Shown: piece by piece, positions 2,658 through 47,726 of the stretch
Layout: each line of letters begins with the position of its first letter
Position numbering within the stretch: position 1 is the stretch's first letter
Origin: a virus
Lineage: Duplodnaviria > Heunggongvirae > Uroviricota > Caudoviricetes
Direction: 5' to 3' (one strand)
Virus record (IMG/VR): IMGVR_UViG_3300046779_001955
Coordinates: 10,116-74,115 of that record
Length of the DNA: 64,000 nt
The notes under the pieces: generated by a model
What the model was told of the DNA's origin: nothing
What the model saw: only the letters and a program-made list of their open reading frames with translations
Database searches by the model: none
Program-made: the position numbers and the translations under genes

Positions 2658-3719
2658 TTAGAATTTTTGATCAAGTGGTTTTGGCCGACGTTGGTTGCCA
2701 AATGCATTGATATAGTGTATGAGCTTTTGGTAAGATCCTGGTTTAGGAGATTTCCCAATTAAGTCAAGATATGATTCCAGTCCTTGGTATTGACTAGTGT
2801 CAAGATTTAGATTAGGGCCATCCCAACTCATTAAGCTCATGTAATCAGGTTCAATAAGAGGTATTATGGTGTGGTTAACACCTTTGCCTTGAGCATACGC
2901 AACAACTTCTGGTAGATCTTGTATGTTTAAAATACTCAATGTAGTGTGTAGTTCAACATAGTTGGCACACATAATATACTGATCAATACTGCTAGTTACT
3001 TCGAGCCAGTTGGAATCATATCTAATCCAACTGGCTCGTTCTCCAACAGCATCAACACTGATGAACACATGTATTTCCTTCCATGCCTGTTTTAAAATTT
3101 CAAATAGTCGAATATTCTTTGTGCCATTAGTGGTAATTTCTAACTTGGTACGAGTGGAATATCCTTCGGTCAATAAAAAATCCACAAATTGTAACACCAA
3201 AGGATTGTAGGCCGGCTCACCACCTTGTATACAAATGGTAACATCGTCGTGGTAGTTATAACTTTTTAATATATTGTTTTTTAAGTTATCCCAATGTGAT
3301 TTGAACTCGGTATTGGGGTTGGAAAACGTCACATCCAATAGTCCTGCATGTTCTTTGTGTTTTTGGATTTTAGAACTGTAGTTTTCGTTACAAGTCCAAC
3401 AGGCCAAGTTACATGCACTTCCAAAGTTTATACTCCATTCTCTCGGATATGCTGGATTTACAATTGGATTGAGTTTGTTGATGCTGGTGCGCATACTAGC
3501 ACCGGTGCGTTCTTGTATAGCACAATTTTGGCATTCAGGTGGAAACTGCTCGTATTGAAATTGTTCTTTAAACTCATTGAACCGATGATTGGTGTTCCAC
3601 CAGTGATCAAAATCTTGATTGTCGCTGACAATCTCAGGATTAACAGCACAGCAATTTCTATACTGTCCATTGGGCAACACAAAGGCTCGAACAAAAGGCA
3701 TTACGCAAAAGGGTTTCAT
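2658..3719 (-). CDS. radical SAM enzyme with Cys-rich N-terminal extension
   Basis: CNLACWTC (CX3CX2C) core, GGEP SAM-binding motif; N-terminal CxxPF-x12-G-x4-CC ... CxxC resembling an auxiliary-cluster (SPASM/twitch-like) motif. Confidence 0.85.
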   Translation of the reverse strand: MKPFCVMPFVRAFVLPNGQYRNCCAVNPEIVSDNQDFDHWWNTNHRFNEFKEQFQYEQFPPECQNCAIQERTGASMRTSINKLNPIVNPAYPREWSINFGSACNLACWTCNENYSSKIQKHKEHAGLLDVTFSNPNTEFKSHWDNLKNNILKSYNYHDDVTICIQGGEPAYNPLVLQFVDFLLTEGYSTRTKLEITTNGTKNIRLFEILKQAWKEIHVFISVDAVGERASWIRYDSNWLEVTSSIDQYIMCANYVELHTTLSILNIQDLPEVVAYAQGKGVNHTIIPLIEPDYMSLMSWDGPNLNLDTSQYQGLESYLDLIGKSPKPGSYQKLIHYINAFGNQRRPKPLDQKF

Positions 3720-4867
3720 AGAAGTTTTGCCAGTGTGCTTAGATAATTTCCTGTGTTCTTTTGAGCACTTAATAAGTCAAGTAAATCAGGATTTTGTCTA
3801 GCAATAAGTTTTTTACTAATTGCCGAATTCAACATTTGATCAATTTGATCTTTCCATGGCAACATTAAAAATTGTTTTAGAATGTTGATATCTCTCAATG
3901 GCGTAAAGGTCAAGGTGTTGCCAAGATGCCAGTGTTGGTGATCATTAGCAGCACATTCTAAAATGTGTTTGCGTAATGCCATAATATCAGATACCGGATG
4001 ATCTACTTGGCTTTGATACTTTTTCTGATTGTCTTCAATCATAAAGTACTCCCGATGCAGATAATTTTGATTTTTCAGCAGCTGATTTATTGAAGTACCA
4101 TGATGCATTGCCAACAAGTTTCCCATCTCAGGATTGCGCAAGGTAAATTCGTCTCCAGGGCATCCACTTACCAAAACAGTGGGCTTGATCCAATGGTGCA
4201 TTTGTTTGTAAGCCCAGTGATTAGATACTATAGTGTGATGATTACATACCCAAAAACGATCAAATTCAAGGTGTTCAGCTAATACTACTTCGTGTGGTAT
4301 TTCTAGTTTTTGTAAGTAACCCAACATCAAAGTAGTGTCAATACCACCACTCAGAAATATTTTTACTGGAAGATTATTGTAACTAAAAAAGTAATCAAAT
4401 TTTTCTGTTAGTATCTCATCAACATATTCAATCACCTCATCAACAGTTCTCTCTTGGGTTGGTACCTCAGTGATAACGTCAACACCGTCAGTTTTGAATG
4501 TAAGATCCTTGTTTAAAGTCAGTAAACTATCGGCAAAAATCTTTCGACTGAGTGGACAAAGATTTGTTACACCAAAGTTAGGATCATACCACAGTGGAAA
4601 ACTTCGGTACAAACTATGACGAACTTGAGCAGTTTCGTCAGATAAAATTATAATACAGTAGTTTCCACTTCGTGTAACATTGTTGTCAACAATATTGTAA
4701 ATTTCTAGATCAAGATCACCGTGATCAAGATACCCTTTGTAAGCTATAGTTTCTCGATTATGCTCAAGTATATTCCAACCTTGATCCATGTCAAGATGCC
4801 AACCGCGATGGTAATGTCCGTTGACACTAAAATTTAACTTTGGTGATCTGCTAATTGAAAAAAACAT
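3716..4867 (-). CDS. asparagine synthetase-like PP-loop ATP pyrophosphatase (amide/lactam synthetase-like), no N-terminal Cys nucleophile
   Basis: SGGIDTT PP-loop motif mid-protein (~res 172) as in AsnB C-domain; N-domain lacks Cys2; 4-nt overlap with radical SAM gene. Confidence 0.7.
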   Translation of the reverse strand: MFFSISRSPKLNFSVNGHYHRGWHLDMDQGWNILEHNRETIAYKGYLDHGDLDLEIYNIVDNNVTRSGNYCIIILSDETAQVRHSLYRSFPLWYDPNFGVTNLCPLSRKIFADSLLTLNKDLTFKTDGVDVITEVPTQERTVDEVIEYVDEILTEKFDYFFSYNNLPVKIFLSGGIDTTLMLGYLQKLEIPHEVVLAEHLEFDRFWVCNHHTIVSNHWAYKQMHHWIKPTVLVSGCPGDEFTLRNPEMGNLLAMHHGTSINQLLKNQNYLHREYFMIEDNQKKYQSQVDHPVSDIMALRKHILECAANDHQHWHLGNTLTFTPLRDINILKQFLMLPWKDQIDQMLNSAISKKLIARQNPDLLDLLSAQKNTGNYLSTLAKLL

Positions 4868-5454
4868 TATTGTCTCTTGTTTATGACTTTATCTGCTAGT
4901 CCGTATGCCACAGCATCTTCGGCGGTCATGAAATTGTCTCGTTCCATATCCTTTTCAAGTTCACTATAATCCTTACCAGTGTGCGTAGCGTAGATATCAG
5001 TCAAAACTTTTTTCCAACGCAGCAATTCTCGTGCTTGAATTTCAACGTCAGTTGCTTGCCCTGATGCACCACCTAGGGGTTGATGAATCATGTGTCGAGC
5101 ATTGGGTAGAATGAACCTGTGTCCGTGTGCCCCGGCCATTGCCAGTAAAGAACCCATGCTGGCTGCTTGGCCCAACACAATAGTATGTATCGGACAACGC
5201 ACAAATTGCATAGTATCATAGATACTCATACCTGCTGTGACACTGCCGCCCGGTGAGTTAATGTAAAAATTAATGGGCTTGTCAGGATCTTCGCTTTCTA
5301 GGAATAGCATTTGAGCTACGATCAGGCTAGCTGAGTGACTTGAAACTTCGGTATCTAGCATGATTACACGGTCCTTTAGCAGCCTAGAATAGATATCATA
5401 GCTGCGCTCGCCCTTGGAAGTGTGCTCGATTACTATGGGAACCAGGTTTGGCAT
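4867..5454 (-). CDS. clpP: ATP-dependent Clp protease proteolytic subunit ClpP
   Basis: [23 protein letters not shown] motifs; start at ATG 5454 with AAGGAG SD (ORF-track start 5511 is an upstream extension). Confidence 0.95.
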
Positions 5455-5482: not shown

Positions 5483-5511
5483 ATTATAACATAACATCCA
5501 ATGATACGCAA
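5483..5511 (-). promoter_or_regulatory. candidate promoter for clpP (TTGCGT-17-TATAAT)
   Basis: revcomp TTGCGTatcattggatgttatgtTATAAT upstream of clpP SD. Confidence 0.4.
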
Positions 5512-7069
5512 GATTCTTGATCAACTCAGCTTTTTAACTGAAAGTACTGGTTTAGCCAATCGCAAACCCGGTGATGTTTTTGCCGATCCTGAAGGCAACG
5601 AGATACGTTTTCAAAGTATTGATTTCTTTCCCCCTGGTGGTGGCAAATATCAAACATCTGAAGAAACACAGAAAGCCATTGACATTGCAATCAAATCTAT
5701 TGGCGTAACACCAATAGAAACAAATTGGTTTCGTGGGTCAACTCGATCATTTGGCATAGCACAATTCCAAGATGCACAAGGGAATCCCTTGGCATTTATT
5801 AGATATTTTGACAAAGAACTTAGTGCTGATCCTAGAGGTAACTATTGGGATAATCAAGGGGGTATACCAGGCTATCGCTATCAGGGCAAAGCTGCTGTAA
5901 AAACTCAGAGCAACGCCACGCCCCAGGATATTTTGACTCAACTAGATGATCTAACTCCTGCAGATATTTTGCGTCAAGTCGAAGAAAAGTTCCCAGGTAG
6001 TAATTTGGTAACAGTTACACAGCATTTGGTGTCAGGTGGTGAGTTACCATTTACTTTTATGCGGCCGCAAGAGATGGATATCTCGGCATTTCAAGATTAT
6101 TTTTGTGAGCTATTACAACCAATCGCGCTACAAACCGGACAGTTTGAAGGTGAAGCTGCGGCTGCTGCATTGGCATTTTTGCCTGATGGAGGTTTTTCTG
6201 ATACTACTATTAACTTCAGTACCAGTAAGACCGAAGGACTCAGTGATTCTATAATGACTGCTCCCGATGGCAGATCAATCAAAGTCAGTAGCAAGGGAGG
6301 TAAAGGTGCACCAGCTTCAGTGGTCAACATTCTCAATGCCTATGACGAATTACAACGCACAGCCAACGGACGCAAATTAACTAAAAAACTAATCAACACA
6401 GTTGAAATTCTCAACACAATCAAAAACACAGGCCAGGCTGAAGGTCCGTTGGTGTTGGCACAACAGTTTGGTATAATCACAGAAAAAGACGCAGAATTTA
6501 TTCGAGCACTCAAGCAAGTAAGACCTTTGCCCTTGGACTCTTTCAAAGATGTCAGTATCAGAGGTAAACAACCTTCTAAAAACCTTGTAAAACTAGCCAA
6601 GGAACGCAACACTAAAGAACCCATGCAGGTAAACTTCTTTTACCATCTCATGGCCAGTGTTGCTTTCAAGGTAGCTGACTATGTCAACAACAAAACTGAT
6701 TTCGGCAAAGATACTGCTGTTATTCTCAACAACAGTGCCTTGATCCAAGTCTACACCAAAGTAACAGCCCGTGGACAACAATGGACATTGCAAAAGTTTG
6801 GTAGTAAGTGGCCTGGATCTATATTCAGTCCCATTGCACTTGATCCTTCCAAGTCATATTACAGCACAGGAATCAAACAAAAATTTACTTTTGATATGAA
6901 GCCTAGAAAGAAATCTTTAGATGATCCACAATCAGCTCATGCTGATATATCTGATCCTGACACTGAATTCAAACGCAGCAAAGTAAAAGCAGCGCAACCT
7001 GAATCACCGCTGGGTAGTGAAAAAACTCTAGGACGTCGCAGACGTCAACGTGCAAATACTGATACATGA
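5501..7069 (+). CDS. hypothetical 522-aa protein (plus strand, between the two clpP paralogs)
   Basis: long uninterrupted ORF; Arg-rich C-terminal tail RRRRQR; no recognised motif. Confidence 0.6.
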
Positions 7070-7611
7070 TCAGTGATATTAAATTTCTGTGCTTCTTCGG
7101 CGCTGAGCCAAATATCTTGCGGTGGTAGCAAATACGTGCGTATATCATCTTCGCTCATACCAGTACACTGTTGATAGTGATTAAGCATCCTGGTCTGTGT
7201 TAGATCAAATTCTTTGATCCTTGCAAATAATTCGTGTGCCTTGCCATCACTTTCCCAAGTAAACTGATGGCTCAATATTGATGTGTTAGGAGTTAAAACT
7301 CTACGTCCTGGTGCACCCGATATAAAGATCAGCAGTGCTGCCGAAGCAATTTGTCCCAGGCCAACTGTTTTAATTGGGGTCGGTGAACTCATCATTACAT
7401 CAATAAGAGCAAAGGCCGCGCTCATGTCACCACCCTCGCTACATATCATCAACAGTAATTCTTTCTTCTTTCGTCGTGTTACATAATTAGATTGAAGAAT
7501 CCATTCAATAACTGGTTTAACACTGTCTATGGTGATTTCTCCCATGAGAAGAAACATTCCCGAATCATTTATCGAAGACACTGCTACTTCATCATCTTTT
7601 TCTGCTGTCAT
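7045..7611 (-). CDS. ClpP-family protease paralog (ClpP2-like), catalytic triad apparently intact
   Basis: SEGG, GQIASAA (Ser), LSHQF (His), Asp near C-term aligned to ClpP triad. Confidence 0.8.
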   Translation of the reverse strand: MTAEKDDEVAVSSINDSGMFLLMGEITIDSVKPVIEWILQSNYVTRRKKKELLLMICSEGGDMSAAFALIDVMMSSPTPIKTVGLGQIASAALLIFISGAPGRRVLTPNTSILSHQFTWESDGKAHELFARIKEFDLTQTRMLNHYQQCTGMSEDDIRTYLLPPQDIWLSAEEAQKFNITDHVSVFAR

Positions 7612-9989: not shown

Positions 9990-10233
9990 TTATGTCTTGA
10001 CCTTGGCTTCTTTGGCCGCTGGCACCACTACCTGTTTCAATGATTCAGTGTAGGCTGTCCACGCATCATTTTGGGCACGAGCAAATTCAAAGCTGGCTTT
10101 GTGCACCACTTCAGCTGCTGAACGAACTTGTTCAGGCAAATAGGTAAGTGCAGTTTTTGCAGTTTTTTCCACTGAGTCAATGACTTCAGAAGCTTTGATT
10201 ATTTGAGTTGAATAAAATTTAGTAAAGTCCATT
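9990..10233 (-). CDS. hypothetical helical protein
   Basis: start at MDFTKFY with AAGGAG SD; Ala/Lys-rich helices (phasin-like look). Confidence 0.5.
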
Positions 10234-10396: not shown

Positions 10397-10663
10397 ATGG
10401 AACTTTTTATTTTATTGCTAGTGGTAATTGGAGCAGTTTGGTGGTTTACTTCGGTTGAGAACAAAGCAGAAGAATCGGGTCGTCATCCCTTGGATGGTAA
10501 TGTAACTAGACAAGAACCTGACTTAACCACAATACCTGATGGGATTGGTCATCAATCAATTACAGTTGCTCCGGTACTTACACAACAATTGGACGTACCT
10601 GCAACAGAATCAACTGCACCCAAAAAATCACGTAAACCTCGCGCTAAGAAATCAGCGGAGTAA
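10397..10663 (+). CDS. small membrane protein
   Basis: AAGGAG SD 7 nt upstream; N-terminal TM helix; basic C-terminus. Confidence 0.6.
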   Translation: MELFILLLVVIGAVWWFTSVENKAEESGRHPLDGNVTRQEPDLTTIPDGIGHQSITVAPVLTQQLDVPATESTAPKKSRKPRAKKSAE

Positions 10664-11674
10664 TTCTACAACTTGGTCTCGGGCAAGATTTTTGCCCTTG
10701 GCCTCACACTGTATATCCCACTGCTCTGCAAAGGTCAGAGCATATTCATTAACAGCCGAGTTCCAATAAAAGTCCGAGTGTGCTCGTAGCTTGCTCCGAG
10801 TGAAGCCTCTTGAAAGCAGTTGCTCAAGATTGGGTCTAGTACAGGGATCGTGATCCACCAAAAGATCTTCACGACTAACGCTGTAGTGAAGCACAGGGCG
10901 AACACCGCGCCAACTGTCCAAAACACGCTGCGCACGATCATCATCAGGAGTGATGTATTCTCCTGTTTTGACCCAGTGATGATGTATATCCAATGTAATT
11001 GGAACACGATGAATAACACCCAAAACAACATCAAGTCCATTTGTAATTTCATCATTCTCTATAGCGATTAGATTTCTAGCTTCGGGGGTCAATCTATCCA
11101 AAGTTTTTAGAAATTTGTCAGGCCCGCCTTTGCCTGACAAGTGTATGTTAATTTTAAATCCATGATCATGCCACTCAGCACCATAGCCCATCCATCGTGC
11201 AAGATCAACATGGTACTCAAACTCATCAATGCTGCGTTCAACAATATCATCGCTTTCACTTGCAAGAACACAGAACTGACCGGGATGGAAACTCAGACGA
11301 ACACCTAGTCTACGAGCAGCTTCGCCAACAGGTGCAAAAATTCGAGCACAATGATTTTGCACATCACTTTGCTGCCACCATTGTTGCCAGTCCTTTTCAG
11401 TGTAACCGTTGAGCATTTCTGAACCAAGACGAACCATGCGCTGAGTCTCAGGCAATGTGCCCACATGCTCTACCAGTGCTAATGCTGCTGCGGCATTATG
11501 GTTCATGATTTCAAACTGTCGTTGCTCGGCTTCGTCGCGATGCTCACGCAACCAGCGCATAGTAGTTGAACGTCCGTTCATGTGACGACTAGCCGACGTG
11601 GGTTTACGGCCAGCTACTTCTTCGGGATGATCTAGCCATTTGCAGCAAAAACCAATTTTAGTAGTGATAGGCAT
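10652..11674 (-). CDS. uvsE: UV damage endonuclease UvdE/UvsE
   Basis: SFHPGQF, NIHLSG, IENDE, DIHHHW blocks match the UvsE TIM-barrel family. Confidence 0.85.
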   Translation of the reverse strand: MPITTKIGFCCKWLDHPEEVAGRKPTSASRHMNGRSTTMRWLREHRDEAEQRQFEIMNHNAAAALALVEHVGTLPETQRMVRLGSEMLNGYTEKDWQQWWQQSDVQNHCARIFAPVGEAARRLGVRLSFHPGQFCVLASESDDIVERSIDEFEYHVDLARWMGYGAEWHDHGFKINIHLSGKGGPDKFLKTLDRLTPEARNLIAIENDEITNGLDVVLGVIHRVPITLDIHHHWVKTGEYITPDDDRAQRVLDSWRGVRPVLHYSVSREDLLVDHDPCTRPNLEQLLSRGFTRSKLRAHSDFYWNSAVNEYALTFAEQWDIQCEAKGKNLARDQVVELLR

Positions 11675-12098
11675 GAATTTTAGGTTTTACCTTTTCTTTA
11701 AGATATTGTAATTTTATACCACATTGTTGATAACCTTCGGCAATACCTAACACGTAACCCATTGACGGCGATCCAACAATGGGTCGTTGCATTTCGTAAA
11801 AGAAAAAATGCTCGTTGTCTTGACGCCAACGACGACGGTTATAGTATACTGGATAACCTTCGTATCGGTCAAGTGCTGCAATGTCCGAATCGGTTAGAAG
11901 CCAAAGAGCTCCGGGAACCACAGCACCGTGTTTTGGTACAATAGTAGCATGACTTCCAAATTCCAGTTCCCAACCTTTGAGATAAAACGATCGAACAAAT
12001 TGAGCGGTTGGGCACCGAAACGACATTTGGTTATGGTTCATGTTCGAGCCATAACCAAAATATAATTTTGGTAATTTATTAATAGATTTGAGTTTCAT
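11658..12098 (-). CDS. gamma-glutamyl cyclotransferase-like (AIG2/GGCT fold) protein
   Basis: YFGYGSNM motif near N-terminus. Confidence 0.65.
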   Translation of the reverse strand: MKLKSINKLPKLYFGYGSNMNHNQMSFRCPTAQFVRSFYLKGWELEFGSHATIVPKHGAVVPGALWLLTDSDIAALDRYEGYPVYYNRRRWRQDNEHFFFYEMQRPIVGSPSMGYVLGIAEGYQQCGIKLQYLKEKVKPKIHAYHY

Positions 12099-12128
12099 AT
12101 AGTCAAAAAAAAATCAACAACTTAGCAA

Positions 12129-12157
12129 GTATAAGTTATTGATTTTTTAAGGCCAAC
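12129..12157 (-). promoter_or_regulatory. candidate promoter TTGGCC-17-TATACT
   Basis: revcomp TTGGCCttaaaaaatcaataactTATACT. Confidence 0.45.
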
Positions 12158-12172
12158 TGGAATTTTACCGAA

Positions 12173-13090
12173 TTACTTTTCGCGCCAAAGATCCAGGGTT
12201 GTACAGTGGAAACCTCCGCCCAGCGTTCGGCTGTGTGTAAGCGGAATTGGTATAGTGTGGATTCCTTTGGATCTTAGTATTTCAATAAGAACTGTTTGAA
12301 TACTGTCCACTATAACAAGTCCTGGACGTACCACTAACATGTTAAGACCAATCCATTTGCTGGCATAAGGATATTGGTAAAAGTCCCGCGGCACACAGTC
12401 AGTTATGTATACCCTTGTCCAATCGCGCAAACATTGCGGACAATTTTCTTCGTTGACACGTTCACCATTGAGTAACACCAGTCCTTCTTGTATTGGTACA
12501 ATAGTTGAATCAATGTGTACGCCTGAATAGAATCCGCAGGCTTCGATATTGATGTTGGGAAATTGCTCTCGTAACCATTGCATAGCAGGTACATTACCAC
12601 TTTGGCTAACTAGATAGAGCCAATTGTCGTTCATTCTACACACGTTAGCAGCATCTAGAATAAATCCCTGATCTCTAGGCATGTGTCGAACATTTTCAGC
12701 CATGTCAACAATATCTTGCACACATTCAATTTCTTGATCTCTACAAGGATACAGCATAGCTGGATCTACAATGGTATTACCTGCAACCAACAAACGATCA
12801 CGAGGACAATAATTGTACATACCTTGATGAGTGGCAAAGTCGCGATCGTCGGGGCGGTAAACTGCTACACCAAGATTGTATAATACATTGCACAAATGAT
12901 CTAATTCTCTGTTTGCTTCATCAATGATATTCTGCGGTACTGGGCCTGATGGAACTGGAGTTTCTTTCCATAGAGTACGTTTGCTTTCTTGCTGAAATAC
13001 CGGATCATGGCTAGGCCAATTTGCACCAGTGGCAGATCCAACAAGTATTGCTCTTAGCGGATCCCATTCATTAAAACTGTGTATTTTCAT
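12173..13090 (-). CDS. amidinotransferase-superfamily enzyme (AGAT/StrB-like) paralog 1
   Basis: N-terminal HSFNEWDPLRAILVGS and C-terminal GGGFHCTTLDL catalytic-Cys motif; start at MKIHSF (ATGA overlap with upstream gene). Confidence 0.7.
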   Translation of the reverse strand: MKIHSFNEWDPLRAILVGSATGANWPSHDPVFQQESKRTLWKETPVPSGPVPQNIIDEANRELDHLCNVLYNLGVAVYRPDDRDFATHQGMYNYCPRDRLLVAGNTIVDPAMLYPCRDQEIECVQDIVDMAENVRHMPRDQGFILDAANVCRMNDNWLYLVSQSGNVPAMQWLREQFPNINIEACGFYSGVHIDSTIVPIQEGLVLLNGERVNEENCPQCLRDWTRVYITDCVPRDFYQYPYASKWIGLNMLVVRPGLVIVDSIQTVLIEILRSKGIHTIPIPLTHSRTLGGGFHCTTLDLWREK

Positions 13091-13602
13091 ATGCCTGTAA
13101 TTTGTAATGTGTATCGTTCGGTACTGCCAATGTTGGCAGCAATATGAGGTAAATCGTTTTTCCAACAAACCCAGTCGCCAGCTCGCCATTGTACAATTGG
13201 GTTCCCATCAAGTTCTAAATAATGTCCCCGATCCCAGTCTTCTAAAAATACTATTGCCCGAGTAATGTCTTGATCTTGGTCTATGTTGTAAATTTCTCGA
13301 AATCTACTGTAAGTGTCCCGGTGCTCGGGTATAGTTGTGCCCGGCTCCATTCTATACACACTCCAGCTAAAGTGTTCAAAATAGAAAACTCCTCGAAAAA
13401 ACTTCATCCAGGGCGGCTCTGGATTGCGCATATCGTACATGTCACCAGTAAATTTGGTTTGTGTGTATCCAAGCTTTCTCCAGAGCTCTTGGGTAACAGG
13501 ATCGTTAAAAGGTTCGTTTTTATAATCTAACAATCGATGTTGATAACCCCACCATGGTGCAAGATGTCCTTGCGACCAATGATTAGTTTCTAGTATTGCC
13601 AT
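13087..13602 (-). CDS. cupin / 2OG-Fe(II) oxygenase-like protein
   Basis: H-x-D (EHRD) ... H (LPHIA) facial-triad spacing. Confidence 0.45.
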   Translation of the reverse strand: MAILETNHWSQGHLAPWWGYQHRLLDYKNEPFNDPVTQELWRKLGYTQTKFTGDMYDMRNPEPPWMKFFRGVFYFEHFSWSVYRMEPGTTIPEHRDTYSRFREIYNIDQDQDITRAIVFLEDWDRGHYLELDGNPIVQWRAGDWVCWKNDLPHIAANIGSTERYTLQITGI

Positions 13603-14833
13603 AGTGTATTATGGTCACACGATTTGTTTGTGTGTTTAGTTTGCGCCATGGGTCAACTACAACTGAGTTAGTGGGAATGTAACTATAATACTCATCGGCT
13701 TTGACATCCCCGGTGTATCCGTATGTAACTGCACGATTATGTGCCATCAATACTACCGAAGGTTCTGAGAGTTCGGTTACTACATCTATGGGATCATCGG
13801 CCAACGGATCCAAATACACAACCCTGCGACCTAGTTCCTGGATATAGAATCCAACTAGTGTAGAGTAAGATCCAATACAATAAGGTACATCAGGTTTATA
13901 TGCCTTACCATGAATAACAATCGGACTGTTACCTAGTTGATGTAGATCTGCTTGCTCTACTAAAAACTTTGCAAGATTTCGTGCTTGGATTTCGCGAGCA
14001 TGCATGATGGTATCAAACAGATCATAACCTATATCATATTCTTGTGCAAGCCAGCGCAAGGCAATGTTATCACGTGGATGGCATGCTCCAGCATCGCCCA
14101 TGCCTGCTGTCATGTACTTAGGTCCCATGATACGCATGGTACTACGAGCCAGGGCATTAGTTACTACGTCAACATTGATATTGCCAATCTTGAGTGCAAA
14201 GTCTTGAATCATGTTAGCAAGACCAACCTTGGCGCTGATGTATGTGTTATAAAAGATTTTAATAGCTTCACATTCGTCCCAGGTGCCAACTTCGTATCTA
14301 GGATCATTCTTCATAATACCCCGATACAATTCAATAAGTTCGCTGGCAACTCCTGTAACACTACCGTCTTCGGTGCCGATAATAACCATCTCTGGGTTAG
14401 CCATGTCCCACTTAACTGAACCCATAGCAATCAAGTATGGATTGTATAAGAATTGATGTTTCTTATCAAGCAATGTAATGAACTTACGACGTGTTGTCCC
14501 CGGGAGAACTGTGCTAATTAACACAACCTTTTTACTTGATTTGGCATGTTGGTTGATTTTAAGTATAGCATCAATCACAGCTTCATGTCCAAAATCTCTA
14601 GGCTCCATATGAGAACTAGGAATTGATCCATCATAACCTTCGGCATGCGGGGTAGGGACTGCAATAAAAATCCAATCACTGTGGTTGATCATCTCACCGA
14701 TGTCAGAATATACTTGTACAGTTTCACTTTGACGAGGGAAAATATCATATCCATTAGTTGGATACCTCTCAGCAAAAACTTCAGCACAGTCCAAACCTAA
14801 CTTACCTAAACCAATAAAACCTACTCTGGGCAT
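13583..14833 (-). CDS. nucleotide-sugar (UDP-glucose/GDP-mannose family) dehydrogenase
   Basis: VGFIGLGKLG Rossmann motif, GGACHPRD catalytic-Cys block; start at MPRVGF with AAAGGA SD. Confidence 0.8.
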   Translation of the reverse strand: MPRVGFIGLGKLGLDCAEVFAERYPTNGYDIFPRQSETVQVYSDIGEMINHSDWIFIAVPTPHAEGYDGSIPSSHMEPRDFGHEAVIDAILKINQHAKSSKKVVLISTVLPGTTRRKFITLLDKKHQFLYNPYLIAMGSVKWDMANPEMVIIGTEDGSVTGVASELIELYRGIMKNDPRYEVGTWDECEAIKIFYNTYISAKVGLANMIQDFALKIGNINVDVVTNALARSTMRIMGPKYMTAGMGDAGACHPRDNIALRWLAQEYDIGYDLFDTIMHAREIQARNLAKFLVEQADLHQLGNSPIVIHGKAYKPDVPYCIGSYSTLVGFYIQELGRRVVYLDPLADDPIDVVTELSEPSVVLMAHNRAVTYGYTGDVKADEYYSYIPTNSVVVDPWRKLNTQTNRVTIIHYGNTRN

Positions 14834-14897
14834 AAACAATCCTTTGTTGAAAACATTAATTATCAGTGAAAACTGATGGTCTATAAATAATTTTAAC

Positions 14898-15323
14898 ATG
14901 CGTTATCAAAATTTACAACTCCAACCTATATCTATTTCCTTTGAATCAAAACTTTCGGACAATGTAGACACTGAATTTTCTGTGGGTACTCGGTTTGCCT
15001 CAGCTAGCCAATTTGTCAAATTATTACCGGGCCTGACTGTATTCACTGATGTTGTTGAGCTTGGCAATCATGATCAACTGCGTATATTTGTAAAGAATAT
15101 AAAATACGGGGATTCAGTAAGAATTAAAGATATTGAAATTGGTAACGTTACTTTACAGCATTACATTTACCAAGGGTGCCAATATCAGGCTGCTGCCAAA
15201 GACTATTACAAACCTGGCACTGAATTTCATCTTGACGGAGTGTTTGAACTAGACATTACAATGCCCATATGGCGCTGGTTGCTGAATCACATTGAAAGAG
15301 AGATACGTGAAAACCGAACATAA
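14898..15323 (+). CDS. hypothetical protein
   Basis: 141-aa ORF on plus strand inside the enzyme island. Confidence 0.5.
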   Translation: MRYQNLQLQPISISFESKLSDNVDTEFSVGTRFASASQFVKLLPGLTVFTDVVELGNHDQLRIFVKNIKYGDSVRIKDIEIGNVTLQHYIYQGCQYQAAAKDYYKPGTEFHLDGVFELDITMPIWRWLLNHIEREIRENRT

Positions 15324-16074
15324 CTTGCCGGAAATTATCAAACAATTACACGACAACAATCAAGTTGAATTAGATTCTGTATTACACTGTGGTATTCCAT
15401 ACATGATGTTAGATTTACATGCACCGCGATTTTCTCGAGATCAAACTCAGAGTTGGATCAATCAGTGGTTTCATTCACAATCCACTGACCAAACTCCGGA
15501 AACAGAGTTTACAAAATTAACACATCGGTCATTTGAAATTGACAGTGAGCTCAACAAGGGTTGGAAAAGCCGTATTATATTTGGTCCAGCAGAATGGTGC
15601 GAGCATTGGCATCTTGGAACTCACGAAGATGAATATACATTAAGTATCAAGCATCGCAATGATTTTAATTTTGTTTGGCTGGTCAAAGAAAATCATCCAG
15701 TGCGCACATGGATCAATACAATGTTCACCGATGATGAATTACTCAATGTCACTGCTTGGGCGATGCCGCCTGGAGGATATTTAAATCCTCATCAAGACTC
15801 TACTACCAATCGTCACGGTATAAACAATCTTTATTGGGCTGTTCAATGGGATCCGGGTAATGAGTTTGGATTCTATCGTTTTGGAACCATACCTATCAAA
15901 GAAGGATCGGTGTGTCTGGTCAATAACTATTCTTATCCTCATTGGGTAGTCAACAACAGTAGTTCTGATCGCCTTGTATTAAGTATTGGTGCTGATCTAA
16001 ATAAAATTGAGCCTGACATTATTCGTAGTTGGCATCTGATGCATAGTCTCGGCCGGGGAAATAATCCTGCATAG
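15292..16074 (+). CDS. aspartyl/asparaginyl beta-hydroxylase-like cupin oxygenase
   Basis: NPHQDS (HxD) and YPHW (distal His); start codon uncertain (TTG). Confidence 0.5.
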   Translation: MKERYVKTEHNLPEIIKQLHDNNQVELDSVLHCGIPYMMLDLHAPRFSRDQTQSWINQWFHSQSTDQTPETEFTKLTHRSFEIDSELNKGWKSRIIFGPAEWCEHWHLGTHEDEYTLSIKHRNDFNFVWLVKENHPVRTWINTMFTDDELLNVTAWAMPPGGYLNPHQDSTTNRHGINNLYWAVQWDPGNEFGFYRFGTIPIKEGSVCLVNNYSYPHWVVNNSSSDRLVLSIGADLNKIEPDIIRSWHLMHSLGRGNNPA

Positions 16075-22104: not shown

Positions 22105-22545
22105 TTAGTTTGAGTAAGTGATTGCAATGCTCTTAGGCTTAATAACTTCAGGTAACTGACGCTCAAACCTTACAGTTAAAATACCATCGCGGCATACAGC
22201 ATCAACAACTTCAACATACTCACCCATGGTCCAGCTACGCATGAATTTACGATTACTGATTCCTTGATGCTTGTAGCTGTGTCCTTCGGGAAGCGCAGTA
22301 TCGCGCTTTTCACCAGTGATGATAACATCACCATCACGGGTAGCAACATCAATTTCACCTTGCGCAAAGCCAGCCACAGCAAGTTGTAGTTCAAAGGTAT
22401 TTTCGCCGGTTTCTACGATGTTGTAGGGAGGGTAGTTGTTATTGGCAGCATGATCAATTTGATTCATAATTCGATCAAATACGCGATCTACACCAATTGC
22501 ATTGCGGTAAAACGGGGTTAAATCAAAAGCAGTTACTTTAGTCAT
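22105..22545 (-). CDS. small heat-shock protein Hsp20 (IbpA-like)
   Basis: FDLTPFYRNAIGVDRVF ... GYPPYNI ... AVAGFA alpha-crystallin blocks; GAGGAG SD. Confidence 0.9.
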   Translation of the reverse strand: MTKVTAFDLTPFYRNAIGVDRVFDRIMNQIDHAANNNYPPYNIVETGENTFELQLAVAGFAQGEIDVATRDGDVIITGEKRDTALPEGHSYKHQGISNRKFMRSWTMGEYVEVVDAVCRDGILTVRFERQLPEVIKPKSIAITYSN

Positions 22546-22884: not shown

Positions 22885-23105
22885 CAGTAGAATTGACGAG
22901 GTAATTGTTGGCTGTTGAGGTATTTCTTCCAACGAGCACGAGCAGAATTGCGCTTGATTTTTCTAGCTGTGGTAGGTTTAGTGTACTGTTGACGCTCCCG
23001 CAGATTTATCAACAGTTGCGATTCTGCAACTTTTTTCTTGAGTTTACGCAACGCTTTGTCAACATTGCCATCTTGACCCACATAAACTACTAAACCTCGA
23101 CGCAC
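22884..23105 (-). CDS. rpsU: ribosomal protein S21
   Basis: 73 aa, VDKALRKLKKKV ... RERQQYTKPT ... RKIKRNSARAR pattern. Confidence 0.85.
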   Translation of the reverse strand: MRRGLVVYVGQDGNVDKALRKLKKKVAESQLLINLRERQQYTKPTTARKIKRNSARARWKKYLNSQQLPRQFY

Positions 23106-24304
23106 TAGATGTTCTCCTTTGGTGTAGGGGTATTTACCTGGTCAAGATCAATTTCTACTAACTTTATTTCACGATCTTGATAGTGTTTTAGATTGTACAT
23201 GTGTGGCAACAAGATACGCTCTAATTCACTGTGCAAGCCCCGTGCTCCAGTTTTATTTGCTCGAGTTCTGCGAGCTATTTCTCTTAGACTTTCTGATGTA
23301 AATTTTAGTTCCACACTGTCTTGTTCAAACAACCATTGATACTGTGAAATGTAATTGTGTTTGATATCAGTGAGAATTGAAATTAATTGATCCTCATCTA
23401 GATCTGACAATGTGACCCAGCTCGGAAAGCGTCCCACAAACTCAGGAATCATACCAAACTTCATTAGATCATCAGGCACAACTTGACTTAGACTCACGGA
23501 TTCTCGTGAACCAACATCAGCGGCGAAGCCCATGGCAGTACCTTGTACACGATTCTTTACAATGGTGTTAAGCCCAACAAATGCTCCACCGGCAATAAAC
23601 AAGATATTGCGAGTGTTGATTTCAATCATTTCAAAGTTGGGATTTTTACGTCCAGCAACTGGGCTTACTCTACAGGTTGTACCTTCAACAATTTTTAGCA
23701 ATGCTTGCTGAACACCTTCTCCGGATACGTCTCTTGTGATAGATGCCGACTCACTCTTACGTGCAATTTTGTCTATTTCGTCAATAAACACAATTCCGCG
23801 TTCGGTTTTTTCAACATCACCGTTGGCAGCAATCAGTAGTCTAGATATCAATGTCTCGACATCATCGCCTACGTACCCAGCTTCGGTTATTGAAGTGGCA
23901 TCTGCAATGGCAAACGGAACATCAAGATAACGTGCCACAGTTCGTGCCAATAGAGTTTTGCCCGAACCTGTGGGACCAAGCATTAACACATTGGATTTTT
24001 CTATTTCTACGTCAGTGCTGGTATTGCTGATACGTTTGTAGTGATTGACAATTGACACTGCCAACATGATTTTGGCTTGATCTTGCCCAATGACATATTG
24101 ATCTAAAAAGTTTTTTATTTCAATGGGATCAAGCCTGCGTTGAATATCAACCTTGGGTGTTTCTACTGTGTCGTTTCCTAGCAGTTCTTGACATAGATCC
24201 ACACATTCATTGCAAATACCAACATGATCACCTACTATTAATTTTTTGACCTGATCCTTGTGCTTACCGCAAAAATTGCAGTGGTTAAATTGTTCTTGAG
24301 CCAC
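23105..24304 (-). CDS. clpX: ATP-dependent Clp protease ATPase subunit ClpX
   Basis: N-terminal C4 zinc finger (CNFCGK...CNEC), Walker A GPTGSGKT, ClpX-specific blocks. Confidence 0.95.
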   Translation of the reverse strand: MAQEQFNHCNFCGKHKDQVKKLIVGDHVGICNECVDLCQELLGNDTVETPKVDIQRRLDPIEIKNFLDQYVIGQDQAKIMLAVSIVNHYKRISNTSTDVEIEKSNVLMLGPTGSGKTLLARTVARYLDVPFAIADATSITEAGYVGDDVETLISRLLIAANGDVEKTERGIVFIDEIDKIARKSESASITRDVSGEGVQQALLKIVEGTTCRVSPVAGRKNPNFEMIEINTRNILFIAGGAFVGLNTIVKNRVQGTAMGFAADVGSRESVSLSQVVPDDLMKFGMIPEFVGRFPSWVTLSDLDEDQLISILTDIKHNYISQYQWLFEQDSVELKFTSESLREIARRTRANKTGARGLHSELERILLPHMYNLKHYQDREIKLVEIDLDQVNTPTPKENI

Positions 24305-44838: not shown

Positions 44839-45555
44839 TTAGTTGGTCAAATAGTAGAGTTCAAGTCGCTTCCACCACTCGTTGCAATAATAATCAAATT
44901 CCTTGCCCTCGAGTATGAATTCCTGGTATTCGGGATTCTTTATGATGTTTAATTGACTGTCTTGCTCGGGTTTTACGCACATTAGTATTACGCCTTTGCG
45001 TATGTCTGTGCCGTAGACTTCGTTGTGTGCTAGAGCATAGGCTGCTAATTGTAGAAAATAATCACCAATCCACTCACGCTTTTTGGGCCGGTTTGTCTGC
45101 TTGTAGTCCAATATTGATAACTCGCCATGATGTAAGCCCACACCATCTGTTGTACCGGCATATAATCTAGGAAAATAAAGCGGAATTTCAATGCCGTAGA
45201 ATTCCGTCACACGATCTCTAAGACCTTGATCAATCACAGTTCTAGCCATGGCCAGGCTAGCCCAACTAAATGGATTGGTCACTGACTCAGCAATATAATT
45301 GCTGCGTATATAATTTTCAAGATACGTGTGCATTTTTGTGCCACGATTAGCAGCTTCGGTGGTGATTTGCTGCGCACGTTGTGCGCCTACCCGATTACGC
45401 CAGTTTTGCAAACTTTGTTTTGATTCTTCTGATTTTGTGCGATCTAACACTGTGGTAACGCTGGGAACTCGACTGCCGTCGGGGGTTTGATATACTCTTT
45501 GGCCATCGTCGGACATTCTACTCAAAAATTGATATTGGTATTTTTGAATCAGCAT
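44839..45555 (-). CDS. PD-(D/E)xK family exonuclease (lambda-exo/YqaJ-like)
   Basis: D ... ELSILDYKQ (D-ExK) motif, QLAAYALAH. Confidence 0.6.
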   Translation of the reverse strand: MLIQKYQYQFLSRMSDDGQRVYQTPDGSRVPSVTTVLDRTKSEESKQSLQNWRNRVGAQRAQQITTEAANRGTKMHTYLENYIRSNYIAESVTNPFSWASLAMARTVIDQGLRDRVTEFYGIEIPLYFPRLYAGTTDGVGLHHGELSILDYKQTNRPKKREWIGDYFLQLAAYALAHNEVYGTDIRKGVILMCVKPEQDSQLNIIKNPEYQEFILEGKEFDYYCNEWWKRLELYYLTN

Positions 45556-45974
45556 TTAGTAACCCAAATACTAGATTTTGTCAAAAATTCTACACCGGCA
45601 CTATCGCGATAATCCGTACGATAAAACACACGCTCTATGCCACTTTGATAGATTAGTTTTGCACACTCTAGACAAGGTGCATGTGTGACAAATAAACTAG
45701 CACCTAGTCCGCTGTTGGCACTGCGGGCCAATTTGGCTATAGCATTTGATTCTGCGTGTAGAACTTCAGGTTTGGTTGTTAGTACAGCACCATCTTCAAA
45801 GAACTCTTCGTGTTCACAATCATTGTCCCAGCCCGCAGGCATGCCGTTGTAGCCATAACTTATAACAGTATCGTCTTTAACTATGACAGCACCAACATGT
45901 AATCTTCGAGCGTGACTTAGATCTGACGCACGTTGTGCCCAGTCCATGTAAAGATCTATATATTTCTGTTTCAT
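45549..45974 (-). CDS. dCMP deaminase
   Basis: HAESNAI and PCLECAKLI zinc-binding motifs. Confidence 0.9.
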   Translation of the reverse strand: MKQKYIDLYMDWAQRASDLSHARRLHVGAVIVKDDTVISYGYNGMPAGWDNDCEHEEFFEDGAVLTTKPEVLHAESNAIAKLARSANSGLGASLFVTHAPCLECAKLIYQSGIERVFYRTDYRDSAGVEFLTKSSIWVTKC

Positions 45975-46297
45975 ATTCTGAAACTTTCTCCGCAGCCGCA
46001 GCGGTCTCGTTCTCGTGGATTTATAAAATCAAAACCCTCGTTTAATCCCTGGCGTTTCCAATCCATTGTGAGTCCGTCAACATAAGGCAAATCTTTGCCG
46101 TTGACATAAATTTTAACGCCATGGCTTGTGTACCCCATCCAGTCTCTGGTCACCGGTGGATTATCAACATACTCTAATTTGTATGCCAGTCCTGAACAGC
46201 CAGTGGTACGTACTCCTATAGAAATCCCAACACCTTTTCCTCGACTTTCAAGTTGTTGCTGCACTTTACGAGCAGCTAGTTCGGTTAGAGTAATCAT
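45971..46297 (-). CDS. iscA: Fe-S cluster assembly protein IscA/HesB family
   Basis: MITLTELAARKV start, C-terminal CGCGESF. Confidence 0.85.
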   Translation of the reverse strand: MITLTELAARKVQQQLESRGKGVGISIGVRTTGCSGLAYKLEYVDNPPVTRDWMGYTSHGVKIYVNGKDLPYVDGLTMDWKRQGLNEGFDFINPRERDRCGCGESFRI

Positions 46298-46361
46298 AGT
46301 TAAATTATACAGTCCTATTAGAATTAACGCAAATTGTGCAGCGCCAAATATAAATATTTTT

Positions 46362-46952
46362 ATGTTAACAATATTCATTCACGGTGCAACTGCCAGCGGC
46401 GCCAGCTTCAATTATTTACGCTCAGATTTAGATGGCGAACATCTAGTGTTAGAGTATGACAGTGAAGATGGGTTTTTCTACAATTTAGATCAACTCAGCA
46501 AACAGATTGAAGCTGCGCGATCTCGTGAACTTTTCTTTATTGGACACAGCCTAGGTGGAATCTACAGTTTGAGTCTTGCTGATCGATTTCCCAAACAAAC
46601 TCGTGGTGGTATTACTATATCTACTCCCTACGGTGGTTCGGAAATAGCGCCATTTCTCAAATACTTTGTTCCGTTCAACCGATTGCTCAAAGAAATAGGT
46701 CCAAATTCCAAGCCCATACAACACGTCAAAAATATCACTCCATTGGTTCCTTGGCACAATATTGTCACAGTCAAAGGAAATAGTCCCTGGATTGCTGCTG
46801 CCAACGATGGAGTAGTCACAGTTGATTCACAGCGGCATCACGAATGTATTGAGTATATTGAAATGTCGTCTAACCATTATGAAGTTTTAATGAGTCCTGA
46901 AGTGGTAAATCTTGTCAAACAAAAACGAAGTCAGGCCTTACGCAAGAAATAA
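46362..46952 (+). CDS. alpha/beta-hydrolase (lipase/esterase-like)
   Basis: GHSLGG nucleophile elbow; start at ATG 46362 (upstream ORF extension overlaps iscA antisense). Confidence 0.55.
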   Translation: MLTIFIHGATASGASFNYLRSDLDGEHLVLEYDSEDGFFYNLDQLSKQIEAARSRELFFIGHSLGGIYSLSLADRFPKQTRGGITISTPYGGSEIAPFLKYFVPFNRLLKEIGPNSKPIQHVKNITPLVPWHNIVTVKGNSPWIAAANDGVVTVDSQRHHECIEYIEMSSNHYEVLMSPEVVNLVKQKRSQALRKK

Positions 46953-47356
46953 GTTTTAGCCGAACGATTGATCAATTGTCTAATACGATCTTTCAAAGGC
47001 ACATAGGATTTGTAGCCAAAAGTTCTAGCAAACTTTTGCACAAGGCGATCGTAAAGAGGAATCTTGTCTGCTTCCTGTGCTGAAAACGTTATTTTTTCAG
47101 GATGATGACTTTGCACAAACTCTCGTAATATCTGCATGACTTTACCAAACACTTCAAACTCACCGCCTTGACCTGATGTAGTTATTCTGCCACCTACAGT
47201 AAACGCAATGTCATACCCACCGTCATTGGTCTCAGTAAACAGTACATCAATAATTCTGCCTCGACTGTCTTGCGTGGTGGCCCTGGTGTCAGTGAAAAGC
47301 TTTCGCCAGTGTATTGGTTCGTCGTAGCGGGTTTGTAGAACTTCATTAATTTTCAT
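46931..47356 (-). CDS. hypothetical protein with N-terminal MKINE motif
   Basis: shares N-terminal M-K/R-I/L-N-E with two neighbours. Confidence 0.5.
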   Translation of the reverse strand: MKINEVLQTRYDEPIHWRKLFTDTRATTQDSRGRIIDVLFTETNDGGYDIAFTVGGRITTSGQGGEFEVFGKVMQILREFVQSHHPEKITFSAQEADKIPLYDRLVQKFARTFGYKSYVPLKDRIRQLINRSAKTYFLRKA

Positions 47357-47726
47357 GTTTTGCTCGATAGTCAGCCAATGCTGCTTTGATTGCGTCTTCG
47401 GCTAGAATTGAACAGTGTATCTTTACCGGAGGGAGTGCAAGTTCTTCTGCAATCTGAGTATTTTTGATCTGACTTGCTTCATCAAGAGTTTTACCCTTGA
47501 CCCATTCTGAAACCAGCGACGACGAAGCAATTGCCGAGCCGCAGCCATAGGTTTTGAATTTTGCATCGGTAATGACGTTGTCTTCGACTTTGATTTGAAG
47601 TTGTAGTACATCACCACAGGCCGGTGCACCAACTAATCCTGTGCCTACACTGGGATCGGTTCGATCTAGTTTACCCACGTTTTTTGGATTTTCGTAATGT
47701 TCTAAAACCTGTGATGAATATGCCAT
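47346..47726 (-). CDS. iscU: Fe-S cluster scaffold IscU
   Basis: GAPACGD, LPPVKIHCS motifs. Confidence 0.95.
   Translation of the reverse strand: MAYSSQVLEHYENPKNVGKLDRTDPSVGTGLVGAPACGDVLQLQIKVEDNVITDAKFKTYGCGSAIASSSLVSEWVKGKTLDEASQIKNTQIAEELALPPVKIHCSILAEDAIKAALADYRAKHEN

Follow-up and report, generated by a model that had tools for sequence, protein, structure and literature searches.

A conserved two-gene module of an N-terminal-twitch radical SAM protein and a divergent AsnB-fold protein without the glutaminase nucleophile in uncultured phages

Results

Organization of the locus

The DNA analysed here, called the window, is a stretch of 64,000 nucleotides covering positions 10,116 to 74,115 of the IMG/VR virus record IMGVR_UViG_3300046779_001955 (Caudoviricetes), and this report concerns two adjacent genes on its minus strand. 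The first, at 3716-4867, codes for a PP-loop protein of 383 amino acids (aa) that has the fold of asparagine synthetase (AsnB) and beta-lactam synthetase and is without the glutaminase nucleophile; it was identified from its open reading frame (ORF), its AlphaFold2 (AF2) model and Foldseek and is referred to as the AsnB-like gene. The second, at 2658-3719, codes for a radical S-adenosylmethionine (SAM) protein of 353 aa of the N-terminal-twitch type, NCBIfam NF033640 (ORF, Pfam, NCBIfam and AF2). The positions agree with those given by an earlier reading of this DNA made from its letters (the sequence-only reading), as does the 4-nt overlap of the two genes: the ATGA at 3716-3719 on the minus strand carries both the stop codon of the AsnB-like gene and the start codon of the radical SAM gene, and the two genes are translationally coupled through it.

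The clpP gene at 4867-5454, also on the minus strand, is the first gene of the operon (CLP_protease, 271 bits; PRK00277, 311.8 bits). Its likely start is the ATG at 5454 and not the TTG at 5511 chosen by the ORF finder, the PRK00277 match beginning at ORF residue 20. The clpP stop codon overlaps the start codon of the AsnB-like gene in the minus-strand sequence TAATG at 4865-4869, and clpP, the AsnB-like gene and the radical SAM gene make up a single operon on the minus strand, in which both junctions are overlaps of a stop with a start codon. The sequence-only reading had small ORFs and clpP following the pair; the small ORFs are present, but clpP lies upstream in the direction of transcription.

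The radical SAM protein

The radical SAM protein scored 31.9 bits against Pfam Radical_SAM (PF04055; cut-off 29.5) and 176.2 bits against NF033640 (N_Twi_rSAM), marginally above the curated cut-off of 170. Translation verified the motifs named by the sequence-only reading, all on the minus strand: the CX3CX2C cluster motif CNLACWTC at residues 103-110 (3390-3413) and the GGEP SAM-binding motif at residues 166-169 (3213-3224), both invariant in the homologues, and a twitch-type motif at residues 5-66 (3522-3707) with the arrangement C5-x12-G18-x4-C23C24 ... C63-x2-C66. The four twitch Cys residues (C5, C23, C63 and C66) thus all stand upstream of the first core Cys, C103. Conservation was counted in 33 non-identical partner radical SAM proteins from the two lineages described below. 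C5, C23, C66 and the three core Cys residues were found in 33/33, C63 in 32/33 and C24 in 31/33, while E70, S75, R77, N104, S115, GGEP, T197, N198, S221, D223, R233 and W238 were kept in at least 32 of the 33.

The Pfam SPASM match over residues 5-66 was below threshold (18.1 bits, cut-off 21.5; E 0.0034). A full SPASM domain (PF13186/TIGR04085) was rejected: only the first half of the Cys pattern is present, with no CX5CX3C after C66, so that the domain is a twitch domain and not SPASM. The four conserved Cys residues in the order C...C...CxxC form what we take to be the twitch (BtrN-like) arrangement. The NF033640 score and the SPASM match support the N-terminal auxiliary motif that had been proposed; its placement, described earlier as atypical, is real and is already catalogued in NF033640, so it is not new in itself. 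Judged by profile score, the protein is a marginal member of this catalogued N-terminal-twitch subfamily. The name of NF033640, a model of the subfamily type, states no function. The window protein shares the N-terminal Cys pattern of its members and passes the cut-off, but only just, unlike the core members (346 bits).

The AF2 model of the radical SAM protein (predicted local distance difference test, pLDDT, 93.3) has short strands between C5 and C23, and Foldseek matched it with probability 1.0 to many radical SAM structures, as fits a partial TIM-barrel fold. Its neighbours in the PDB, from the clade related to SPASM/twitch enzymes and from elsewhere among radical SAM proteins, were SuiB, anSME, BlsE, TigE, NifB, MoaA, SkfB and viperin (E 1.6e-6 to 1e-3); these model-based matches do not discriminate between substrates. 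A phmmer search against PDB sequences gave no match, and QueE was rejected as an identity (TIGR03963, 12.8 bits against a cut-off of 260.1). A literature search for N-terminal twitch enzymes and phage-encoded radical SAM proteins found no characterization.

The AsnB-like protein

The AsnB-like protein had no match in Pfam (PF00733 and PF13537 included), NCBIfam or PHROG, and searches of PDB sequences with phmmer and with the family profile gave only spurious chitinase and IscB matches (E > 0.01). Its AF2 model was of high confidence (pLDDT 92.4; predicted template modelling score 0.90). The best PDB matches found by Foldseek were human ASNS, beta-lactam synthetase (BLS), E. coli AsnB, TsnB9 and CarA, all with probability 1.0, E-values of 2e-10 to 5e-7, TM-scores of 0.40-0.53 and identities of 10-12%, while amidotransferases of the PurF type, which have an N-terminal nucleophile (Ntn) domain, matched the N-domain only. 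In BFVD the best matches were viral predicted structures annotated as asparagine synthase.

Translation and conservation placed the PP-loop SGGIDTT, an ATP pyrophosphatase signature, at residues 173-179 (4331-4351, minus strand); among 44 homologues G174, G175 and D177 were invariant and S173 was conserved in at least 90%. Conservation and the AF2 model further indicated a shortened Ntn-like N-domain of about residues 1-130 (4478-4867, minus strand) with conserved GNFC and RSFP motifs. All 44 homologues begin with MFF, position 2 being Phe and never Cys, and in the window no in-frame start codon precedes the first ATG of the gene. The MFF start in 44/44 means that there is no Cys nucleophile. 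The other residues invariant in the 44 sequences, besides M1, F2, F3 and the three PP-loop residues, were P237, G238, D239, E240, R244, N308, D309, Q311, H314, T322, P323, K370 and N371.

Homologues gave sub-threshold matches to PF00733 (22/44, best E 0.0018) and to GATase_7 (9/44). An hhalign comparison of the family with E. coli AsnB reached a probability of only 13%. In this low-confidence alignment GNFC and RSFPLWY fall onto AsnB residues 118-150, SGGIDTT onto SGGLDSS, DEFTLR onto the D-V-T-T-I-R loop, TPLRD onto VPFLD and QK370 onto QK449, and the AsnB segment with the Asn-Gly oxyanion hole is left unmatched. It therefore suggests, at low confidence, that the oxyanion segment of the glutaminase domain has been deleted; at 13% probability we make no claim that catalytic residues are conserved.

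The AsnB-like protein is a very divergent and compact form of the AsnB-superfamily fold; its PP-loop is intact, and a Cys nucleophile is missing. The two-domain fold without nucleophile had been expected by the sequence-only reading and is borne out by the MFF start, the Foldseek matches and SGGIDTT. The likeness to the AsnB C-domain holds for the fold, the protein being far more divergent than was implied, without a PF00733 match.

Conservation of the gene pair

An N-twitch radical SAM gene directly adjoins 30 of 44 distinct AsnB-like genes. In twenty of these pairs the genes converge and overlap at their 3' ends, in nine the radical SAM gene lies downstream in the same direction, as in the window, and in one it lies upstream. 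Reciprocally, an AsnB-like neighbour stands beside 30 of 37 distinct radical SAM genes of the pair type, or 30 of 33 when cases at contig ends are excluded; four of the seven exceptions are at contig ends and one is 834 bp from a weak AsnB-like ORF (145 bits). The adjacency was seen in at least four different neighbourhoods (ClpP, sugar operon and others) and in several gene orders.

The partner radical SAM proteins belong to two lineages with about 22% identity to each other; for the AsnB-like proteins the figure is about 39%, whether they are compared inside one of the corresponding groups or across them. Both lineages pass the NF033640 cut-off, partners from other loci scoring 180.2, 184.1 and 205.6 bits. 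A mirror-tree test gave a weak correlation (r = 0.24), so that we recognise two radical SAM lineages and not co-divergence. In the syntenic loci L001 (11150-12277) and L022 (6838-7977) the AsnB-like proteins are 59% identical while the convergent radical SAM proteins, one from each of the two lineages, share about 30% identity over 220 residues only. From these alignments the partner looks as if it had been exchanged in place or had radically diverged, which argues for selection keeping an N-twitch radical SAM gene beside the AsnB-like gene. These data show that the two genes form a conserved two-gene module that recurs in many uncultured phages. The literature searched contained no description of such a pairing, and to our knowledge N_Twi_rSAM has not been described together with an AsnB-like enzyme.

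At L049 (5992-8101), another of the seven exceptions, a radical SAM gene of the window type is followed, one base after its stop codon, by an ORF of 334 aa in the place of the AsnB-like gene. Its product had no Pfam or NCBIfam match; by eye it shows a HIHRD...H-x-H-like pattern reminiscent of cupins and 2-oxoglutarate oxygenases.

Distribution of the two families

More than 700 metagenomic homologues of the AsnB-like protein were found, of uniform length (380-400 aa). An exhaustive profile search of 1.84 billion representatives returned 407 clusters at 50% identity, of which 240 had E <= 1e-30 and 68 lay between 1e-10 and 0.001; the best 150 of the 407 were 190-450 aa long. This spread of E-values and the lengths suggest a bounded family and not the tail of canonical AsnB. 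Members were located at 40 IMG/VR loci, for the most part where the contig is 130-349 kb long, and also on ENA, JGI and NCBI metagenome contigs of up to 343 kb. A tblastn search with two of the proteins did not find it in 50,697 GenBank phage records, to which the region also had no nucleotide-level match by megablast. Scans of 185,579 bacterial and archaeal genomes, sensitive only to the conserved motifs used as seeds, detected neither AsnB-like proteins nor relatives of the partner radical SAM proteins. The AsnB-like proteins are thus apparently a phage-restricted and previously unmodelled clade of a known superfamily.

Relatives of the radical SAM protein in cultured phages were limited to KVP40-like vibriophages (24-26% identity) and one match in a Ralstonia jumbo phage. 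In metagenomes the N_Twi radical SAM core family is extremely abundant: at least 7,988 proteins matched with E <= 1e-10. Tandem arrays of N-twitch radical SAM genes with up to seven paralogues were observed in viral contigs (L079, 517-9596; L094; L129, 4236-16938).

Gene neighbourhoods of the pair

In the marine T4-like loci L003, L004, L010 and L037 an operon ends with an epimerase gene whose 3' end is overlapped by the AsnB-like gene; the operon has the order glycosyltransferase GT9, PfkB kinase, cupin, cytidylyl/adenylyltransferase (CTP_transf) and epimerase, which may correspond to an ADP-heptose-like pathway. In L102, likewise T4-like, the order is DNA polymerase B, methyltransferase, AsnB-like gene, radical SAM gene, two genes of no assigned function, NDP-sugar dehydratase/epimerase and DegT aminotransferase. 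A GDP-mannose 4,6-dehydratase gene is found near the AsnB-like gene in the T4-like contigs L031, L038 and L046. The N_Twi radical SAM array of L129 is part of a co-directional operon in which it is interleaved with genes for a hexapeptide-repeat protein (Pfam Hexapep), an epimerase/dehydratase, DegT and a carbamoyltransferase; an adenylylsulfate-kinase-like protein is also encoded there.

Of 37 unique loci, 10, from at least three contexts, have a GGACT/AIG2-like gene no more than 6 kb from the AsnB-like gene, often directly beside the radical SAM gene or, where this is missing, beside the AsnB-like gene. In the window such a gene, coding for a putative gamma-glutamyl cyclotransferase and candidate accessory enzyme, is located at 11658-12098 on the minus strand (Pfam GGACT, 48 bits), 7 kb from the pair, although it adjoins the pair in other phages. 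It belongs to an auxiliary cluster at 10652-16074 that also contains genes for UvdE (10652-11674), a weak arginine-deiminase/amidinotransferase-like protein (12173-13189), two Asp/Asn beta-hydroxylase-like cupins (13087-13602 and 15292-16074), both within 12 kb of the pair, and a UDP-glucose/GDP-mannose dehydrogenase-like protein (13583-14899), about 9 kb from it. About 10-24 of the examined loci have the deiminase-like and UvdE genes in synteny with the pair.

Genes of these kinds have been reported together in marine phages. Marine T4-like viral genomes have up to 12 radical SAM genes and encode ClpP along with IscU or A-type carriers, and phage IscU and A-type carriers co-occur with many radical SAM genes (PMC5332604). 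The hypervariable regions of pelagimyophages hold glycosyltransferases, rfaE, UDP-glucose dehydrogenase and lipopolysaccharide genes along with radical SAM cassettes (PMC7029224). Neither study assigns a function to the radical SAM genes.

Small ORFs beside the pair

The small ORFs at 2129-2621 were confirmed. The ORF of 74 aa is found in the two closest relatives only, and that of 88 aa (2129-2395) in the window only, with no homologue in any examined related locus. The latter has two CxxC-like pairs and a weak zinc-ribbon match (anti-sigma-F Fin, E 0.05). Across the examined loci no small ORF was conserved beside the pair in different contexts, which makes these ORFs poor candidates for the precursor peptides that the sequence-only reading had suggested they might encode. 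A lasso or other RiPP system (RiPPs being peptides made by the ribosome and modified after translation) with the downstream small ORFs as precursors was rejected since these ORFs are not conserved. An assignment as a lasso cyclase (C protein) was rejected as well, there being no B protein, that is, a RiPP recognition element (RRE) with a transglutaminase-like protease, among the scanned neighbours and no conserved precursor.

Other genes of the window

Further products of the window are a DNA polymerase, a DnaB-like helicase, a primase, both ribonucleotide reductase subunits, a ligase, ClpX, a second ClpP, Hsp20 and a dCMP deaminase, a gene content resembling that of the replication and metabolism section in the genome of a large phage. 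No tRNA genes were found in it. A plus-strand gene of 522 aa at 5501-7069, which is conserved and has no assigned function, is flanked on its two sides by the ClpP paralogues of the minus strand (4867-5454 and 7045-7611); the order ClpP, 522-aa gene, ClpP, AsnB-like gene was found again in 13 unique loci. With ClpX at 23105-24304 and Hsp20 at 22105-22545, the phage has its own proteostasis set. At 867-1322 a protein of 151 aa has, in its C-terminal part, a weak match to the SWIM zinc finger (CSCPGFKYRSKCRH; 17.6 bits against a cut-off of 19.6), and in 13 unique loci its gene is conserved at a distance of up to 6 kb from the AsnB-like gene.

The genes for IscU and IscA, which had been proposed between 45971 and 47726, are real and are possible suppliers of clusters: an IscA-type Fe-S carrier is encoded at 45971-46378 (Fe-S_biosyn, 57.4 bits) and an IscU scaffold at 47346-47726 (NifU_N, 170.6 bits), both on the minus strand. 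They form a group at 44839-47726 with a PD-(D/E)XK nuclease-like protein and the dCMP deaminase (45549-45974). IscA homologues were observed near the pair or related radical SAM genes in eight other examined loci.

Discussion

Comparison with characterized AsnB-fold enzymes

The AsnB-like protein resembles beta-lactam and carbapenam synthetases in its two-domain fold of Ntn-like and PP-loop domains (Foldseek E 7e-10 to 5e-7), in the absence of an N-terminal Cys nucleophile and in the presence of an SGGxD[ST] PP-loop. It differs from them in its low identity, its length (383 aa against about 500), its N-domain of about 130 residues, the lack of a PF00733 match, its restriction to phage contigs and its twitch radical SAM partner. 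As for their catalytic Lys and Tyr/Glu, K370 aligns with K449 of AsnB in the 13% alignment, at low confidence. AsnB and human ASNS are the best overall fold match (E 2e-10), and the PP-loop, an RSFP-type loop and, at low confidence, PFLD-like and QK motifs can be aligned with AsnB; unlike AsnB, the family has an invariant Phe at position 2 and, at low confidence, appears to have lost the Asn-Gly segment of the oxyanion hole. Together these two differences indicate that the AsnB-like protein is not a glutamine amidotransferase. For uronamide-forming AsnB homologues of the WbpS type the point of comparison is a glycan locus: the pair lies in one in T4-like lineages, and in the lineage of the window only the dehydrogenase-like gene is found, about 9 kb away. 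WbpS-type uronamide amidotransferases have a functional glutaminase domain, unlike the AsnB-like protein with its missing nucleophile.

A possible tailoring module

We propose, tentatively and with a probability of roughly 0.45, that the pair is a phage tailoring module in which glutamine-independent amide formation on an adenylated carboxylate is combined with a radical step, most likely on a sugar. The AsnB-like enzyme would adenylate a substrate carboxylate using ATP and would then convert it to an amide or lactam, taking free ammonia or an amine, and not ammonia derived from glutamine; beta-lactam synthetase, carbapenam synthetase, TsnB9 and lasso cyclases are precedents within the superfamily for such amide or lactam formation. 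The radical SAM enzyme would abstract a hydrogen atom from the same or a preceding intermediate, which might thereby be oxidised, epimerised or dehydrated, and its auxiliary cluster could serve as an electron conduit, as in enzymes of the BtrN type. The substrate would most likely be a nucleotide-activated or glycan-bound sugar acid or amino sugar, and the product may decorate the host envelope or the virion, both suggestions coming from gene context. The GGACT-like cyclotransferase may remove a gamma-glutamyl group from an amine intermediate, and the phage IscU and IscA could load the Fe-S clusters.

A carbohydrate is favoured because the pair stands in sugar operons of several independent lineages and the wider N_Twi family does likewise; peptide, sugar and nucleotide are thus no longer the three equal options of the sequence-only reading. 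The UDP-glucose/GDP-mannose dehydrogenase-like gene of the window and the mixture of lipopolysaccharide genes and radical SAM cassettes reported for pelagimyophages (PMC7029224) lean the same way. Our confidence is limited, the evidence being that of gene context and the window's own lineage being without sugar-gene neighbours.

Several observations weigh against this proposal. Gene neighbourhood is the sole source of the substrate assignment, and in the jumbo-phage lineage of the window the neighbours are two clpP genes and the 522-aa gene, not sugar genes, and give no hint of the chemistry. A hypervariable region rich in auxiliary metabolic genes (PMC7029224) could mix unrelated genes, so that the adjacency to sugar genes may be incidental. 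The best structural neighbours of the radical SAM protein include the peptide-modifying SuiB, anSME, TigE and SkfB, and retention of catalytic residues by the AsnB-like protein is not established by an AsnB alignment of 13% probability. About one third of the AsnB-like genes have no radical SAM gene within 8 kb; L019 (8001-9798) has the same arrangement of AsnB-like gene, GGACT and endonuclease as L028, minus the radical SAM gene, and tblastn found no radical SAM remnants in such loci, L019 included. The radical step is therefore not obligatory, and the AsnB-like enzyme can be retained without its partner.

Alternative explanations

It is conceivable, though unlikely, that the pair modifies a peptide or protein, the AsnB-like enzyme making an isopeptide or lactam bond and the radical SAM enzyme cross-linking or epimerising a residue, possibly in connection with ClpXP. 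The top fold matches of the radical SAM protein (SuiB, anSME, TigE and SkfB) are maturases of RiPPs or proteins, yet its own N-terminus is a twitch domain and not an RRE. In the window clpP and the AsnB-like gene are translationally coupled, and the two adjoin in 19 of 37 unique loci, whereas T4-like lineages have the pair without clpP nearby. Cys-less AsnB homologues act as lasso cyclases, but neither an RRE/PqqD nor a lasso B-type protease was present among the neighbours scanned with or labelled by Pfam, and a small ORF conserved beside the pair across contexts is missing. GGACT-type enzymes cleave gamma-glutamyl-amine (isopeptide) bonds, and the recurrence of a GGACT gene in 10 of the 37 loci would suit this explanation.

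The same gene could point to another small-molecule pathway, leading to a cofactor, a polyamine or amino-acid conjugate or an antibiotic-like metabolite, in which the GGACT-like enzyme deprotects a gamma-glutamylated amine. This we regard as distinctly unlikely. GGACT is directly beside the radical SAM or the AsnB-like gene in L003, L010, L012, L036, L028 and L019, but most loci have none. In butirosin biosynthesis a twitch radical SAM enzyme (BtrN), an ATP-dependent ligase (BtrJ) and a cyclotransferase (BtrG) occur together, which may be a parallel; a carrier protein, an ATP-grasp or a pyridoxal-phosphate-dependent decarboxylase partner was not found. The natural-product enzymes BLS, CarA and TsnB9 are among the best fold matches of the AsnB-like protein, and BlsE is a fold match of its partner. 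The resemblance of the radical SAM protein to BtrN-type twitch enzymes, which we take as a lead, lies in a single four-Cys auxiliary motif, C...C...CxxC, in the absence of an RRE and in the sugar-gene context of several lineages; unlike in BtrN, the twitch domain of the window protein precedes the barrel, and BtrN is absent among the top 50 fold matches listed.

A functional analogue of QueE/QueC, hypermodifying a nucleobase or nucleoside of phage DNA or tRNA first by a radical step and then by ATP-dependent chemistry that gives an amide or nitrile, seems more improbable again. A radical SAM enzyme joined with an amide-making PP-loop ATPase follows the logic of QueE and QueC, but profile tests fail for both proteins (QueE 12.8 bits, no QueC match), the confident assignment to that pathway by which the sequence-only reading would have been refuted does not occur, and the fold of the PP-loop protein is that of AsnB, with two domains, and differs from that of QueC. 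The nucleotide-acting MoaA and viperin are among the fold matches, and the window is rich in nucleotide metabolism (ribonucleotide reductase, dCMP deaminase, DNA polymerase), whereas FolE, QueD, DpdA/TGT, hydroxymethylase, kinase and aGPT-type genes were all absent among the scanned neighbours, a scan that covered the window incompletely. A further parallel is found in KVP40 (L057, NC_005083.2, 133498-137161), whose genes 0258-0261 code for two convergent N_Twi-like radical SAM proteins, an NAPRTase-like and a QueC-like protein, with a weak GT52-like gene nearby. The nearest relatives of the window's radical SAM protein in cultured phages are of this KVP40-like kind (24-26% identity, the N-terminal Cys region included), and the gene is convergent to the operon with the PP-loop gene; unlike the window protein they fall below the NF033640 cut-off (127.9 and 118.6 bits), and the PP-loop neighbour is QueC-like.

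We consider it very improbable that the AsnB-like protein is an isopeptide ligase tagging proteins through a Glu or Asp carboxylate, in the manner of pupylation or lasso formation, for the phage ClpXP, with GGACT recycling leftover gamma-glutamyl-amine isopeptides and the radical SAM enzyme maturing the tag or the target; if true, this would amount to a new kind of system for tagging and degrading proteins, carried by a virus. That the two genes are neighbours merely by shared phage ancestry and act in unrelated processes is hardly credible: many loci are from related jumbo phages with conserved synteny and a third of the AsnB-like genes lack the partner, but the adjacency outlasts changes of orientation, order and flanks and the swap to a radical SAM lineage of about 22% identity, and 30 of the 33 pair-type radical SAM genes not cut by contig ends have an AsnB-like neighbour.

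Significance

The module is widespread and clearly real, and is not a new kind of system. Its AsnB-like family, with 407 clusters found on metagenomic and viral contigs only, is matched by no model of Pfam, NCBIfam or PHROG; the nucleophile by which glutamine amidotransferases are defined is gone from it, but the ATP-activating PP-loop is kept. The pair could add a new combination of amide-forming and radical enzymes for biocatalysis, and the KVP40 cluster, uncharacterised and carried by a cultured phage, could serve as an experimental handle. The identity of the product, whether sugar, peptide or nucleotide, would be a biochemical entry point to the abundance of radical SAM and Fe-S-assembly genes in phages (PMC5332604). 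The persistent pairing with an uncharacterised radical SAM class points to unassayed chemistry that large aquatic phages carry into their hosts.

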